A DNA stretch of 64,000 nt. Source: Candidatus Yanofskybacteria bacterium CG10_big_fil_rev_8_21_14_0_10_46_23. GTDB lineage: Bacteria > Patescibacteriota > Minisyncoccia > 2-02-FULL-40-12 > IGHO2-12-FULL-4. Within the stretch, counting starts at the first letter, position 1; every line of letters begins with the position of its first letter. Below, one piece after another: positions 18,267-52,072 of the stretch. Position numbers and translations under genes: made by a program. Location of the stretch: NCBI GenBank assembly GCA_002771135.1, contig PCXO01000005.1, positions 38,061 through 102,060 on the forward strand. Reading direction: 5' to 3'. Under the pieces are notes generated by a model. That model had not been told where the DNA came from, did no database searches, and saw only the letters and a list, made by a program, of their open reading frames with translations.

Positions 18267-18337
18267 TGCCGGGTCGTCTAAAGGTAAGACTACGGTTTTT
18301 GGGACCGTCTATCGGGGTTCGAATCCCTGCCCGGCAG
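18267..18337 (+). tRNA. tRNA-Gln (anticodon TTG)
   Basis: Manual fold: acceptor TGCCGGG/CCCGGCA, D-stem GTCT/AGAC, anticodon stem ACGGT/ACCGT with loop TTTTGGG, T-arm CGGGG-TTCGAAT-CCCTG; no encoded CCA. Confidence 0.75.
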
Positions 18338-18374
18338 CTATCCTTCGCCAAGGCTTCGGAATAGCCTTGCTAAT

Positions 18375-18668
18375 ATGTATTATGTATATATTTTATACAG
18401 TTCAAAATCTAAAAACTTTTATTTTGGCTATACCGAGAATCTAAAGAAAAGATTTGGGGAACATAATAAAGGACTATCAAAAGCTACGGCTCCATATATA
18501 CCCTGGAAATTAGTATTCTATAGTGCTTTTGATACCATTAAAAAAGCCAAAGATTTTGAACTGTATTTAAAAACAGGATCGGGTAAAGCTTTTGCTTATA
18601 AAAGATTATTAAATTCCGAAGCCTTGAAGAAGGATTTGGGCCGAGGTGTTCCGAAACTCGGAGAGTGA
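18375..18668 (+). CDS. GIY-YIG nuclease family protein (small stand-alone)
   Basis: MYYVYILYSSKSKNFYFGYTENLKKRFGEHN - canonical GIY...YIG and R...E...N motifs; immediately downstream of tRNA-Gln. Confidence 0.75.
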   Translation: MYYVYILYSSKSKNFYFGYTENLKKRFGEHNKGLSKATAPYIPWKLVFYSAFDTIKKAKDFELYLKTGSGKAFAYKRLLNSEALKKDLGRGVPKLGE

Positions 18669-18900
18669 AGGACATCCCGGCAGCACTTCGACTCGCTTGC
18701 TTCAACAAGTTCAGCACAAGTCGCTCGCTCAGTGCGAGCACTGTGAGGCTTAGTTTTGCTCAGGAGGGACAGCCGACGAACGTAGGCGAGGAGGTACTGA
18801 GCCCAGCAGGGCGAATGTGCCACATTGTATGAATCGGAAAGGTTGCCTCATAAAAAGTGGAAAGGACGCAAATGAATCAAAGAGCTATAAACTTACAAAT

Positions 18901-48730: not shown

Positions 48731-49015
48731 ATGGACAAGACAGTTACAAAAGCAAAATTTGTTCAGAGACTGGCTGATAAGATGAACGCCAGCAAGAAAG
48801 ACGCTCAGGATTGGCTCGATGTTATTTTTGATGAGATTGTTGCCGTTATGAAAGAAGGCGACAAGGTCAACATCACCGGCTTTGGAATTTTCCGAATTTA
48901 TGATCGAAAAGCCCGCATGGGTCGAAACCCTGCGACCGGTGAACCTGTTCAGATTGCCGCCAAGCGAATGCCTAAATTCCGACCGGGCAAAGTTTTGAAA
49001 GAAGCGATCGAGTAA
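48731..49015 (+). CDS. hup: DNA-binding protein HU
   Basis: KAKFVQRLADKMNASKKDAQDWLDVIFDEIVAVMKEGDKVNITGFGIFRIYDRKARMGRNPATGEPVQI - canonical HU/IHF fold. Confidence 0.85.
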   Translation: MDKTVTKAKFVQRLADKMNASKKDAQDWLDVIFDEIVAVMKEGDKVNITGFGIFRIYDRKARMGRNPATGEPVQIAAKRMPKFRPGKVLKEAIE

Positions 49016-49043
49016 AGACTCACAGCGGTTAGATAGATCAAAA

Positions 49044-49071
49044 AACCTCCGTATCAAACGGAGGTTTTTTG
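49044..49071 (+). terminator. rho-independent terminator
   Basis: AACCTCCG-TATCAAA-CGGAGGTTTTTTG. Confidence 0.65.
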
Positions 49072-49125
49072 ATTAGAATAAATAAAATCCCCACTCAATC
49101 AGTGGGGTGGACGGACTTAAAAAAA

Positions 49126-49674
49126 TTATCTTTGCTTCGGCCAGTAGCCGTGAGCTAGTTTTGATTTCAAAATTTCTTTTTCTGATAGAACCTTCTCACC
49201 TGGCTCAAAGATAAGTTTTTTTACTTTAGATTTCTTAAGTCTCGATTTTCTACAAACTAATCGAGACATCCAAGAACTATCACGATCAAGTTCTCGAATA
49301 TAATGCTTTAAATCCCCGATATTTAGACCTCGAGTTGTCCCGGTTGTTATCGGGTGAAACAACATTCTTGCTCCTGGCGATATCCAACGCCTCTGGCCAG
49401 AAAGGAAGATGATAACCCCGCAAGATTCAGCCGAACCGGTTATCACGGTCTGAATGGGAGATTTTATAACTGTTGTTAAAGTTTCAAAAATCGCCCTGCT
49501 TGAGCGAACTATCCCGCCATTGAGATCAATCAAAATTGTTATTGGATCATTATTCTCCTGATCGAGTTGACGCGCTTTTTCAAGGAACTCGCCCGCCGTT
49601 TCGAAATTAATCTCACCAAAATAAGAAATAATTCGCCTCGGAACGCAAGGAAATGCACTTAACTTCTTACTCAA
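49126..49674 (-). CDS. ClpP-family serine protease (stand-alone, possibly phage-derived)
   Basis: ITILIDLNGGIVRSS...TVITGSAESCGVIIFLSG...RMLFHPI matches the ClpP Ser/His catalytic segments; 182 aa; no clpX adjacent. Confidence 0.55.
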   Translation of the reverse strand: MSKKLSAFPCVPRRIISYFGEINFETAGEFLEKARQLDQENNDPITILIDLNGGIVRSSRAIFETLTTVIKSPIQTVITGSAESCGVIIFLSGQRRWISPGARMLFHPITTGTTRGLNIGDLKHYIRELDRDSSWMSRLVCRKSRLKKSKVKKLIFEPGEKVLSEKEILKSKLAHGYWPKQR

Positions 49675-49781
49675 CTTATTCTCCTTTCAAAAAATAAACT
49701 ACCAAGATTTAACTATTAAAGTTCTAAAAATAATTTTTGTCAAACGTTCCCTCTCTCTTTTAAAAACCAAAACGTCTAATT

Positions 49782-49857
49782 TTGGAGCCGATGGTCGGAT
49801 TCGAACCGACGACCTCTACTTTACGAAAGTATTGCTCTACCAACTGAGCTACATCGG
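49782..49857 (-). tRNA. tRNA-Thr (anticodon CGT), CCA encoded
   Basis: Reverse complement folds: acceptor GCCGATG/CATCGGC, D-arm GCTC-AGTTGGTA-GAGC, anticodon loop TTCGTAA, T-arm GTCGG-TTCGAAT-CCGAC. Confidence 0.8.
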
Positions 49858-50094
49858 CACCATCTCGCTTTGATTAAGATCAAAGCTTCCTCCTTCGCCG
49901 GAGGCTTCGGAGGACAAGTCGGAAATAAGATAACCTTGCTTGTCATGCGAAGCCTCGGGCGAAGTCTGACCCGCCGAAGCTTGGGGATTAGTTCAATCGG
50001 AGGTGGGAGCTACCTCGGCCCTTTTTCGATCTTACCACATAAAATCTGATTTTCTTTTTAAACAATGGCTATTATGAGTATTTTTTCCCATAGG

Positions 50095-50340
50095 TTAAAT
50101 TGTCCGTAAGATTTGTTTGAGCTTTCTTCGCCCACCTCCATTTTTCCAGTATAGTTCTCTTTTTCTTGCCTCTATTGATGTATTAAACTCTTCAGAAAAC
50201 AATAGATCTAATGGGCGCCTGAATTTAGTAGATTTTACTTGTCCCGAATTATGTTTCTTTAACCTCTCCTCCAGATTATTTGTATAGCCGACATAAGTTT
50301 TGTTATCCTTATTGCTTTTTAGGATATAAATATAAAACAC
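50095..50340 (-). CDS. GIY-YIG nuclease family protein (small stand-alone)
   Basis: MFYIYILKSNKDNKTYVGYTNNLEERLKKHNSGQ...; lies between tRNA-Gly and tRNA-Thr. Confidence 0.75.
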   Translation of the reverse strand: MFYIYILKSNKDNKTYVGYTNNLEERLKKHNSGQVKSTKFRRPLDLLFSEEFNTSIEARKRELYWKNGGGRRKLKQILRTI

Positions 50341-50548
50341 TAATCTGTTGAGAGCGGGTCGCCCGTTTGGGGCGGACCTCGCTCAAAATTTGGAACAAAT
50401 TTTGAGCGGGTGAAGGGAATCGGTCACGAATAATCTTTCACTTCCGTTCAAGATTTTCTCGACCCCAGCTCGCTTGTTCCACCCTTTGACGGAACATCGC
50501 TCCGCTTTTCGATTCCTTTAACAACCAATAAATTGGTTGTTAACCCGG

Positions 50549-50619
50549 AGCGGGTGAAGGGAATCGAACCCTCATCACTAGCTTGGAAGGCTAGAGCTCT
50601 GCCATTAAGCTACACCCGC
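50549..50619 (-). tRNA. tRNA-Gly (anticodon TCC)
   Basis: Reverse complement: acceptor GCGGGTG/CACCCGC, anticodon stem CTAGC/GCTAG with loop CTTCCAA, T-arm with TTCGATT loop; no encoded CCA. Confidence 0.8.
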
Positions 50620-50808
50620 CTGCGCCCCATAAAAATCTCGAGGCTTCGGCGAGGCAGGCCCGTTAATTTTGGGCCCGCCAAATAATATCTTGAAATTATG
50701 CTATGAAAACTTTTATTTATCAACAGTGGGGCGAGCAGAACTACCGATTTCTGACAACTTGCACCCGCGCCTGGTGGCGCGAGTACTGCGCTCCCCTTCG
50801 GTCGCTTG

Positions 50809-50881
50809 TATCCCGGGCAGGACTCGAACCTGCAACCGACAGCTTAGAAGGCTGTTGCTCTTCCGATTGAGCTACCGGGAC
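50809..50881 (-). tRNA. tRNA-Arg (anticodon TCT)
   Basis: Reverse complement: acceptor GTCCCGG/CCGGGAT, D-arm GCTC-AATCGGAA-GAGC, anticodon stem ACAGC/GCTGT with loop CTTCTAA, T-arm GCAGG-TTCGAGT-CCTGC. Confidence 0.8.
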
Positions 50882-51098
50882 ATATATTTTTTGAATAACA
50901 TGACTCCCATTTAAAGTATATAAATTGTTAATAATCAAAACGCTTGCCCCCCGAATCCGCCGACTGGCGGAGAAGGGGGAAGCTACCGGGACATGTTCGG
51001 ATATTATACCACGAAAGACATTGCCGGTAAATGGAAAGCGTGGTAAAATAATTTAGATTTAGTTATACTAAATTCCGCTTAAATTTAAATAGTTCCCT

Positions 51099-51172
51099 CG
51101 GGCTGTAGCGTAGCGGTTTAGCGCGCCTGCTTTGGGAGCAGGAGGTCGTCGGTTCGAATCCGACCAGCCCGA
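51099..51172 (+). tRNA. tRNA-Pro (anticodon TGG)
   Basis: Acceptor CGGGCTG/CAGCCCG, D-arm GCGT-AGCGGTTTA-GCGC, anticodon stem CCTGC/GCAGG with loop TTTGGGA, T-arm GTCGG-TTCGAAT-CCGAC. Confidence 0.8.
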
Positions 51173-51190
51173 CAGGTCGAAAATCAAAAT

Positions 51191-51266
51191 GGTGGTCGTA
51201 GCTCAATGGTAGAGCACCGCTCTGTGGCAGCGGTGGTTGTGGGTTCGAATCCCATCGATCACCCCA
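51191..51266 (+). tRNA. tRNA-His (anticodon GTG) with encoded G-1 and 3' CCA
   Basis: G-1 pairs with discriminator C73; acceptor GTGGTCG/CGATCAC; anticodon stem CCGCT/AGCGG with loop CTGTGGC; T-arm GTGGG-TTCGAAT-CCCAT. Confidence 0.85.
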
Positions 51267-51517
51267 TGAAGCCTGTAAACTTGAATAAAAAAAATATTAT
51301 CCGGATATTAATCACTTTAGTAGTTACGCTTTTTATTTTACCTAGAATTATGGTGACAGAACACTTCGCTTGCAGTGATTATTGCCCCGGGCCTGAGGAG
51401 CAATATCTTGTAAAAGTTTATCCTATAGTTTTTAATTCAGCCTGGTGTCGTTTAATTGGGGGTGATCCGGGCAGTTATAATGGTTGGGGTGAATTTAATA
51501 TTTGTCGAGTGAAGTAA
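51266..51517 (+). CDS. small secreted/membrane-anchored Cys-containing protein (hypothetical, 83 aa)
   Basis: ATG overlaps the last base of the tRNA-His CCA; hydrophobic signal/TM IIRILITLVVTLFILP; four Cys (CSDYCPGP...WCRL...NICRVK). The longer ORF-track start at 51206 overlaps the tRNA and was trimmed. Confidence 0.3.
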   Translation: MKPVNLNKKNIIRILITLVVTLFILPRIMVTEHFACSDYCPGPEEQYLVKVYPIVFNSAWCRLIGGDPGSYNGWGEFNICRVK

Positions 51518-51724
51518 TATTGCAGTTGCAACATCCCACACCAAGCAAACCCCCAGACAAAAATTTTTGCAAACAAAAATCCCAACCTCCTTTTGCCGAA
51601 AACATCTCTAAAAATTATAAAGAGAGAATCATCGAGAGCTTCTTTGACTCTTTTGGATAAAAGGGGTATTTTATTTTTGGAACTTTCAAACATTTAACAA
51701 CTTTTAGAGTGGGGGGATACGCAG

Positions 51725-52072
51725 ATGGAGAATAGATCCTCAGTTACAATGCACGGTGATGTGGCCGTCTTTCATCTGGACAAAAGAATAACTATTTCTG
51801 AAGGTGGATCGACTAAGTTCAAAAATAGAGTTCTGAACCTCTTGATAAATAAGAAGAAAAAAATCTTGCTCGATATGAGTAGGGTGGAATGTGTTGATTC
51901 CGGTGGAATTGGGGAGTTTGTACGGGCCTTTGTAACCACAACAAACAACGGTGGTCAGATTAAAATATATGCCATGTCTCGGGAGAAGGTTGACAGCCTT
52001 ACTTTTACAAAATTGGCGATGACTTTTGATACTTTTGAAGGCCTAGATGACGCCCTCGCGAGTTTAAACTAG
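51725..52072 (+). CDS. STAS-domain protein (anti-sigma-factor antagonist, SpoIIAA-like)
   Basis: LDMSRVECVDSGGIGEFVRAF...GGQIKIYAMSREKVDSLTFTKLAMTFDTFEGLDDA pattern of anti-anti-sigma STAS domains. Confidence 0.55.
   Translation: MENRSSVTMHGDVAVFHLDKRITISEGGSTKFKNRVLNLLINKKKKILLDMSRVECVDSGGIGEFVRAFVTTTNNGGQIKIYAMSREKVDSLTFTKLAMTFDTFEGLDDALASLN

Follow-up and report, generated by a model that had tools for sequence, protein, structure and literature searches.

How did a small GIY-YIG nuclease gene come to lie between a tRNA-Gly and a tRNA-Thr gene, among displaced copies of the ends of both? The question is raised by a 64,000-nt stretch of the genome of Candidatus Yanofskybacteria bacterium CG10_big_fil_rev_8_21_14_0_10_46_23 (contig PCXO01000005.1, positions 38,061 to 102,060; hereafter the window), a member of the candidate phyla radiation (CPR) or Patescibacteria. 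An earlier note on this DNA held that a mobile GIY-YIG element had inserted into, or recombined within, the tRNA array and that the tRNA-end fragments bracket it. With somewhat better than even confidence, we favor another reading. The gene would belong to a cassette found across CPR bacteria on the 3' ends of tRNA-Gly genes, where its nuclease would drive spread or retention; the present locus would have arisen by joining to an older duplication, and the tRNA-Thr and tRNA-Arg fragments would be of separate origin.

Read along the minus strand, the locus comprises a promoter-like site, a copy of the tRNA-Arg 5' end, tRNA-Arg(TCT), tRNA-Gly(TCC), a spacer, a tRNA-Gly fragment (X), two hairpins and the GIY-YIG open reading frame (ORF); 75 nt further on follow a tRNA-Thr fragment (Y), a 148-nt GC-rich structured leader, tRNA-Thr(CGT) and a Clp-protease-like gene (Table 1). 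The two fragments described earlier are real and oriented like the intact genes. X belongs to a 19-nt exact direct repeat detected by repeat search (GAGCGGGTGAAGGGAATCG; 50404-50422 and 50548-50566; blastn E = 3.7e-4 against the whole 64-kb window), and the 13-mer Y (GAGCTACCTCGGC, 50007-50019) is identical to the tRNA-Thr 5' end (49846-49858) at 12 of 13 positions; both gene copies had been placed one base away, at 50549-50567 and 49845-49857. A third fragment, beyond those listed previously, copies the tRNA-Arg 5' end over 14 nt. Loci for comparison (numbered with the prefix L) were gathered in three ways: from RNase Y loci of GTDB representative genomes, as GIY homologues in metagenomes, and by way of chosen proteins. 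Three of them (L001-L003) come from the same strain as the window (99.3-100% identical) and are uninformative for comparison. tRNAs were called with ARAGORN and Rfam. Among 200 tRNAs in related loci, the 3' end was repeated within 300 nt downstream in 17, versus 1 of 200 in the upstream flank that served as control, and the 5' end was repeated within 300 nt upstream in 10, versus 1 of 200 downstream. Copies of tRNA ends near tRNAs are far above chance.

The ORF belongs to a cassette together with a 60-nt leader, which consists of two covarying hairpins. Its junction is identical at all loci: the tRNA end (...CCCGCT/C) runs into an A/T-rich palindrome (hairpin 1, HP1) that opens with the tRNA's own CGCTC, followed by GAGCGAGGYTCGYCC, an inner hairpin and GGGCGRCCCGCTC (hairpin 2, HP2), with the start codon 8-12 nt on. 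In HP1, CGCUC of the tRNA and an A/U-rich trailer pair with a downstream inverted copy ending in GAGCG. HP2 mirrors the tRNA-Gly acceptor stem (GCG.GGU/ACCCGC, then U, C), reproducing G1:C72, C2:G71, G3:C70 and the discriminator U73. GAGCG has two possible partners, the tRNA end (forming HP1) and the closing CGCUC of HP2, and the resulting helices exclude each other. The window carries an exact HP1-HP2 unit directly behind X. Its HP1 arms lie at 50408-50396 and 50392-50380, the 5' arm opening with the tRNA-end CGCUC, and HP2 occupies 50378-50357, extendable by pairing of GAGCG (50384-50380) with CGCUC (50356-50352); the GTG start lies 11 nt past this CGCUC. Because the last 5 nt of X form one HP1 arm, X is the canonical left junction of the cassette.

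Alignment of the leader from 21 loci gave 21 base pairs, with 99.3% of cells paired and compensatory changes at nine pairs. None of 500 shuffles reached the score, and slid controls were 34-49% paired. Nine sequences have U.G at one HP2 pair, and this favors folding of the sense strand, as RNA or single-stranded DNA. A covariance model (R1) used to search for the leader scores 85.6 bits at the window leader, its single copy in the window; besides a 42%-identical paralogue at tRNA-Gln, no further copy of the leader or cassette was found in the 64 kb. Rfam returned no family in the spacer, cassette leader or tRNA-Thr leader of the window, L096, L121, L124 and L150, where it matched only tRNAs and a group I intron in L121.

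The protein confirms the GIY-YIG gene proposed earlier at 50095-50340: it matches Pfam PF01541 over residues 1-71 (E = 1e-19; 71 bits versus a curated cut-off of 22.6). It consists of the catalytic domain only, with no second domain, and its size (81 aa) and single domain fit the stand-alone UPF0213 type, a class of about 80-110 aa. Its closest relatives of solved structure are the UPF0213 proteins 1YWL (E = 7.8e-8) and 1ZG2 (E = 1.2e-7), matched over nearly full length; the URI nuclease domain of Slx1 matches weakly (E = 0.009), and no NCBIfam family scored above its cut-off for this ORF. Catalytic-type residues (Y..Y.L, Y.G, R, HN.G, A..RE..K) are at least 90% conserved in 78 distinct homologues. 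The ORF is under purifying selection, with a median ratio of nonsynonymous to synonymous substitution (dN/dS) of 0.10 in the close clade, where dS is saturated (1.2-2.5). The proteins of this clade are maintained and presumably active nucleases. That of the window is 100% identical to an 'endonuclease' of the CG10_big_fil_rev_8_21_14_0_10_46_23 metagenome-assembled genome (MAG) of Candidatus Yanofskybacteria; its closest relative, P0005 (88% identity), is encoded in L084 at tRNA-Gly(CCC). An intron-encoded endonuclease of the I-TevI type was rejected because the ORF is not embedded in a group I intron: TIGR01453 reached 24 bits against a cut-off of 56, and Rfam found no intron within 49000-52000 at E values up to 1.

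Two side observations concern these genes. A look-up of the exact GIY protein returned no match; the GTG-start ORF is missing from the gene calls of the identical contigs L001 and L002, and small tRNA-linked GIY genes may be under-annotated in MAGs. The paralogue in the window, detected by tblastn (18375-18668, plus strand, 97 aa, 42% identical), begins 36 nt past tRNA-Gln(TTG) (18267-18338), with a small hairpin (CAAGGCT..AGCCTTG) between them. A short way past its stop codon, CCCGGCAGC repeats 9 nt of the tRNA-Gln 3' end, and about 150 GC-rich nt follow (region 18267-18690).

Distinct GIY proteins at least 63% identical to that of the window numbered 28, of which 25 had enough upstream DNA for analysis. 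A same-strand tRNA-Gly lies 17-275 nt upstream in 24 of these 25 loci (anticodon TCC in 5, CCC in 6 and GCC in 13), and the exception, L102, retains a 9-nt tRNA-Gly stub and the leader. Ranking by protein identity mixes the tRNA-Gly anticodons, and the close clade stands behind three tRNA-Gly genes in unrelated neighborhoods (DivIC, HU, tRNA-Trp). More distant GIY genes have a tRNA within 300 nt in 28 of 50 cases, either just upstream, 1-5 nt past the stop codon or overlapping it. Each GIY clade is specific to one tRNA type, and in other clades the leader design is remade for their own tRNA: Trp in L151; Phe and Arg in L137, L145 and L152.

Filled and empty alleles of the same site occur in related genomes, a feature by which homing-endonuclease genes are recognized; the comparisons here are between species, not within one population. 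Among tRNA-Gly(TCC) sites in the RNase Y loci of 43 GTDB representatives, a set that stands apart from the window genome and in which most sites lie downstream of RNase Y-HU, only L009 is filled. Three further sites (L011, L027, L083) carry the leader without a recognizable ORF, and the remaining 39 of 43 have ordinary trailers. The DivIC-tRNA-Gly(CCC) site is filled in L084 and L088; in L176-L180, whose DivIC proteins are 59-69% identical, it is empty. A displaced tRNA-Gly 3' fragment follows the stop codon directly in L105 (17/17) and L084 (19/20) and in decayed form in L009 and L113. The fragment past the stop codon in L088 is unlike the resident tRNA and cannot pair with its 5' half, so it arrived with the cassette. 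A second, incomplete GIY-like ORF lies downstream of the cassette ORF in L105, where it belongs to another subfamily, and in L110. Leader units are multiplied in L009, L097, L111, L115 and L120, and L050 has an orphan degenerate leader. Judged from these comparisons, the distribution is the pattern predicted for a site-specific, repeatedly acting element. To this extent the idea of a mobile GIY-YIG insertion in a tRNA array stands, as an insertion cassette tied to tRNA-Gly whose orthologous sites are mostly empty; the fragments, as described below, are not its brackets.

The cassette is probably selfish, specific to tRNA-Gly ends and carried on the tRNA transcript. Since neither a Shine-Dalgarno sequence nor an evident promoter of its own was found at the locus, it would most likely be expressed by read-through from the tRNA promoter, and tRNA-processing enzymes may release or regulate it. 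The distribution suggests that the nuclease helps the cassette to spread or persist at tRNA-Gly 3' ends, much as a homing endonuclease would.

Several observations weigh against such a role. The tRNA fragment after the ORF is kept in only about 5 of about 27 loci. No near-identical copies were seen at different sites of one genome, and the window itself holds a single copy. ORFs are almost always intact and dS is saturated, so long-term retention fits at least as well as recent spread; the intact ORFs also depart from the classic cycle of invasion, decay and loss. Furthermore, a protein that is a bare catalytic domain has no DNA-binding module of the kind expected of homing endonucleases and is unlike the characterized GIY-YIG members of that group. 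Finally, inserts flanked by the same tRNA-end repeats occur without a GIY gene, so the duplication mechanism is possibly independent of the nuclease.

The same intact ORFs, with their dN/dS of about 0.1 and saturated dS, would suit a gene that serves the host, perhaps as a nuclease for repair or RNA processing, and that has been inherited together with tRNA-Gly operons since early Paceibacteria. Patchiness would then reflect repeated loss, and the conserved, covarying leader would be an ordinary regulatory or processing element. Stand-alone UPF0213 GIY-YIG genes are also common single-copy genes in ordinary bacteria. We nonetheless consider a host gene unlikely. Co-inheritance with an operon accounts poorly for one clade behind tRNA-Gly genes in three unrelated neighborhoods, for protein similarity that is not sorted by anticodon, and for displaced or foreign tRNA 3' fragments after the ORF, orphan leaders and second incomplete GIY-like ORFs. 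Two paralogues within 64 kb, both adjoining tRNAs, and the many sister clades that adjoin other tRNAs argue in the same direction.

A bolder version of the mobile reading, which we rate as rather unlikely, makes the cassette a minimal mobile element of about 0.33 kb that homes to the 3' end of one tRNA by means of a leader-guided nuclease and borrows the promoter and processing of that tRNA, with ORF-less inserts as its non-autonomous relatives. Given a nuclease without a DNA-binding domain, target recognition would here depend on the leader, either in RNA form or as a hairpin of the sense strand with complementarity to the end of the tRNA gene.

ORF-less inserts bear directly on the Gly side of the locus, where X is also the right-hand repeat of a 144-nt duplication made up of spacer and X. 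The spacer contains a hairpin (GTTAACAACCAAT..ATTGGTTGTTAA), an inverted partial T-arm copy (AAGGAATCGAA) and two further hairpins. L023, a Yanofskybacteria relative with an RNase Y 66% identical, has at its orthologous tRNA-Gly(TCC) a spacer homologous to that of the window (score 105 versus 59.9 +/- 5.5, z = 8.2, 0/300 shuffles), then an exact 19-nt copy of its own tRNA-Gly 3' end and a terminator, and there is no GIY gene at the site. At GIY-less tRNA-Gly genes, L015, L049, L056, L079 and L180 have inserts built alike, with a hairpin, a partial T-arm copy in inverted orientation, more hairpins and a direct, exact copy of the tRNA end; such inserts are also present at other tRNAs, and L124 repeats the window layout with an unrelated spacer. 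An alignment of all mini-inserts with MAFFT was poor: homology is clear between the window and L023 only, and the others share architecture, not sequence. The flanking duplications are independent of the GIY gene, and comparison with L023 indicates that an older 144-nt duplication-insert predates the cassette at tRNA-Gly(TCC). The earlier note had stated that relatives with the same spacer and no GIY-YIG gene would count against its model; on the Gly side, L023 is such a relative.

Two other identities for the spacer were rejected. A decayed GIY ORF is not supported, as there is no open frame, the weak likeness is confined to the last codons and homology to L023 explains the sequence better; for a hidden tRNA or tmRNA, ARAGORN and Rfam were negative on either strand. 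As separate observations, in L015, L023, L039, L042, L057 and L079 the terminator hairpin past tRNA-Gly(TCC) is followed by an inverted copy of the last 11-20 nt of the tRNA. Together these make a long palindrome that includes the tRNA 3' end, a feature that is weaker in the window spacer (50508-50522 versus 50554-50568). A subset of ORF-less inserts (L121 after tRNA-Val, L124, L096, L057 and L038) shares a common core, GGGGTCGGGAG..CTCCCGT.TAGGAA..AAACC..GGTTT..AGCG.AGCGA.GGGTTCTAG..GCCTGCC..GGCAGGC, which stands at different tRNAs (Val, Gly, Thr), has no Rfam match and may be a small mobile or structured RNA element.

A direct repeat of a tRNA end beside the intact tRNA, as found in integrative elements, is present in the window (19 nt), L105 (17 nt) and L180 (28 nt). 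Direct repeats of 13-28 nt that flank an insert and leave the tRNA rebuilt are the classic integrative signature, and many tRNAs show the same signature around inserts of 110-190 nt that lack an ORF and in some cases stand in tandem. The repeats could therefore be att scars of integrase-mediated (Campbell-type) integration of small circular DNAs, with the GIY gene as cargo or as resident of the slot and mobilized in trans. This origin appears quite unlikely. No recombinase or other ORF was found in the inter-repeat segments of 125-330 bp, nor an integrase in or beside the inserts examined; the second repeat is missing from most GIY cassettes; and it is hard to see how passive cargo would keep each GIY clade at one tRNA type with a leader tailored to its end.

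Under the reading we favor, the cassette stands behind a 19-nt stub rather than an intact tRNA-Gly because an older duplication-insert, spacer plus X, was already in place on tRNA-Gly(TCC). Between X and the HU terminator, the window is about 1.28 kb longer than L023, the excess being the leader, GIY gene, Y-leader, tRNA-Thr and Clp-like gene. tRNA-Gly(CCC) and tRNA-Thr(CGT) are neighbors in L177 (58 nt apart) and L176 (405 nt apart); a GIY cassette lies between them in L119, and a cassette plus 1.6 kb in L084. These two tRNAs are ancestral neighbors, and from that adjacency the extra block probably derives from a tRNA-Gly(CCC)-GIY-tRNA-Thr(CGT) locus. X together with the preceding C equals the L084 tRNA-Gly(CCC) 3' end (20/20). 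A block running from HP1-HP2-GIY to tRNA-Thr(CGT) was probably joined to tRNA-Gly(TCC) and its spacer at the shared 19-20 nt of the tRNA-Gly end. Direct insertion of the cassette after X is a conceivable alternative. lepA-divIC, which would mark the reciprocal breakpoint, was looked for in the window and is absent there.

The tRNA-Gly/tRNA-Thr neighborhood is still undergoing rearrangement. L096, a strain variant, is 98.4% identical to the window over 890 nt (49833-50722); it has tRNA-Gly, spacer, X, GIY and Y-leader in common with it, and the identity reaches as far as nucleotide 26 of tRNA-Thr. Past these 26 nt (L096 860-1290) the sequence is that of a tRNA-Thr(GGT) whose anticodon-loop region holds an insert of about 230 nt, and beyond that come a duplicated tRNA-Thr 3' end, rpmG (L33-like) and tRNA-Trp. 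As only the first 26 nt of tRNA-Thr are shared, the breakpoint lies inside the tRNA. The insert fits the divergent group I intron described for tRNA-Thr(GGU) of Patescibacteria (PMC13011429). Between tRNA-Thr and HU the window also has a Clp-protease-like ORF of 182 aa (49126-49674; Pfam CLP_protease, E = 1e-17). This ORF is missing at the matching position from all of the 80 RNase Y-HU loci of relatives and so belongs to the lineage-specific block.

On the Thr side, Y corresponds to the acceptor 5' strand, U8, A9 and the D-stem 5' strand of tRNA-Thr. Its 13 nt open a tRNA-Thr leader unit that is both conserved and structured, with the motifs GCUUCGG, GGCAAG..CUUGC and, right before the tRNA, GCGA..GU. 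The window unit is 80% identical to leaders of L150 over 46 nt (E = 3e-5), with a consensus fold supported by compensatory changes. L150 has two tandem Y-leader units (116-nt period) ahead of tRNA-Thr(TGT) and a single one ahead of a tRNA-Thr(GGT) that contains an intron, and at each unit Y is exact to its cognate tRNA. The copy on the Arg side comprises the tRNA-Arg 5' end plus two leader bases (50981-50994 = 50870-50883, 14 nt exact), 111 nt upstream of the gene and 8 nt downstream of the best promoter-like site of the region. From this proximity it seems that an insert with a replacement 5' end displaced the original promoter and 5' end in the upstream direction. In the favored reading, both 5' fragments are separate leader duplications. 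Tandem repeats of 67-116 nt were also observed upstream of tRNA-Thr(TGT), tRNA-Pro and tRNA-Met (L150 1160-1400, L134 490-645, L163 1130-1275), each unit opening with an exact copy of the first 13-25 nt of the tRNA.

Insertion of one mobile cassette between adjacent tRNA-Gly and tRNA-Thr genes, with both fragments as its footprints, is very improbable: the fragments are real and co-oriented, the two tRNAs, as CCC and CGT isoacceptors, adjoin in relatives and L119 has a cassette between them, but the Gly repeat and spacer exist without GIY in L023 and others, the Thr fragment belongs to a leader unit found at other tRNA-Thr genes (L150), and no canonical cassette ends in a Thr 5' fragment, the end being either the stop codon or a Gly 3' fragment.

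Among known systems, the nearest analogue would be SegB of phage T4, a free-standing GIY-YIG homing endonuclease gene in a phage tRNA gene cluster (PMC2988022, PMC13096335), and by this analogy the cassette may work like a free-standing homing-endonuclease gene. Both have a GIY-YIG domain, an intergenic ORF outside any intron or intein, a position among tRNA genes and presence or absence at the same site. Seg proteins, in contrast, have about 200 aa or more and carry DNA-binding domains, whereas the cassette encodes 81 aa of catalytic domain only. The cassette differs further in its conserved tRNA-mimicking leader, its fixed junction at the last base of one tRNA type, its chromosomal location in CPR bacteria and the long-term maintenance of its ORFs. 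In size, single domain and sequence matches the protein resembles UPF0213/YhbQ-type proteins (1YWL, 1ZG2) and Slx1; unlike the UPF0213/YhbQ type, the CPR genes are multi-copy and tRNA-adjacent. To our knowledge, no function, tRNA linkage or leader has been reported for UPF0213/YhbQ-type proteins.

tRNA-targeting integrative elements (tyrosine-integrase islands, their integrase-less derivatives and archaeal integrated plasmids) resemble the inserts in that they enter at a tRNA end, repeat 13-28 nt of it directly and restore an intact tRNA. The inserts differ in having no integrase, in their size of 0.11-0.33 kb and in their occurrence at both 5' and 3' ends, and the cassettes mostly lack a second repeat. 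GIY-YIG ORFs have been described in insertion sequences of CPR rRNA genes, sparse and without site preference (PMC11270868). Like the cassette, they occur in the same phylum, at structural RNA genes and not in recognizable introns; they interrupt the rRNA genes, whereas the cassette lies outside the mature tRNA and is strictly site-specific. HP2, with its tRNA-Gly acceptor pairs and discriminator before an ORF without a Shine-Dalgarno sequence, recalls the tRNA punctuation or minihelix processing signals (mitochondrial; RNase P, RNase Z), and a processing role may be predicted for HP2. We found no description of a tRNA-linked GIY-YIG cassette or its leader in CPR bacteria in the searchable literature, the coverage of which was incomplete.

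CPR genomes are tiny, yet tolerate many insertions in structural RNA genes. If the proposed reading holds, the cassette would offer a compact model of selfish genes that exploit tRNA transcription units without killing the tRNA, and a first genomic clue to the target of the widespread, uncharacterized UPF0213 GIY-YIG proteins. It would also help to explain the duplicated tRNA ends that litter CPR tRNA loci and their role as rearrangement breakpoints, both of which affect tRNA annotation and MAG assembly.

Table 1. Features of the tRNA-Gly/tRNA-Thr locus (positions in the window)
Feature	Positions	Strand	Basis
tRNA-Thr(CGT), intact	49783-49858	-	ARAGORN, Rfam
tRNA-Thr leader, structured, GC-rich	49859-50006	-	26-nt inverted repeat I2
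Y, 12/13 copy of tRNA-Thr 5' end	50007-50019	-	repeat search
GIY-YIG ORF, 81 aa, GTG start	50095-50340	-	Pfam PF01541
Cassette leader, conserved and structured	50345-50420	-	covariance model R1, alignment of 21 loci
X, 19-nt exact copy of tRNA-Gly 3' end, T-loop to C74	50404-50422	-	repeat search
Spacer (mini-insert), 125 nt	50423-50546	-	inverted repeats I18, I24
tRNA-Gly(TCC), intact	50547-50619	-	ARAGORN; Rfam tRNA, 72.5 bits
tRNA-Arg(TCT), intact, first gene of minus-strand tRNA run	50808-50881	-	ARAGORN, Rfam
Copy of tRNA-Arg 5' end, 14 nt exact (AT+GTCCCGGTAGCT)	50981-50994	-	repeat D10
Promoter-like site TTTACC-17-TATAAT with upstream TG	51031-51003	-	10/12 match

Two minor observations concern the remaining tRNAs of the region. 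tRNA-Thr(CGT) and tRNA-Pro(TGG), on opposite strands, share an identical 25 nt covering the variable loop and T-arm (49792-49816 and 51142-51166), and such identical tRNA 3' modules may be recombination substrates. In relatives, the Gly, Pro, Arg and His tRNAs follow one another on one strand; in the window, Pro and His are inverted.

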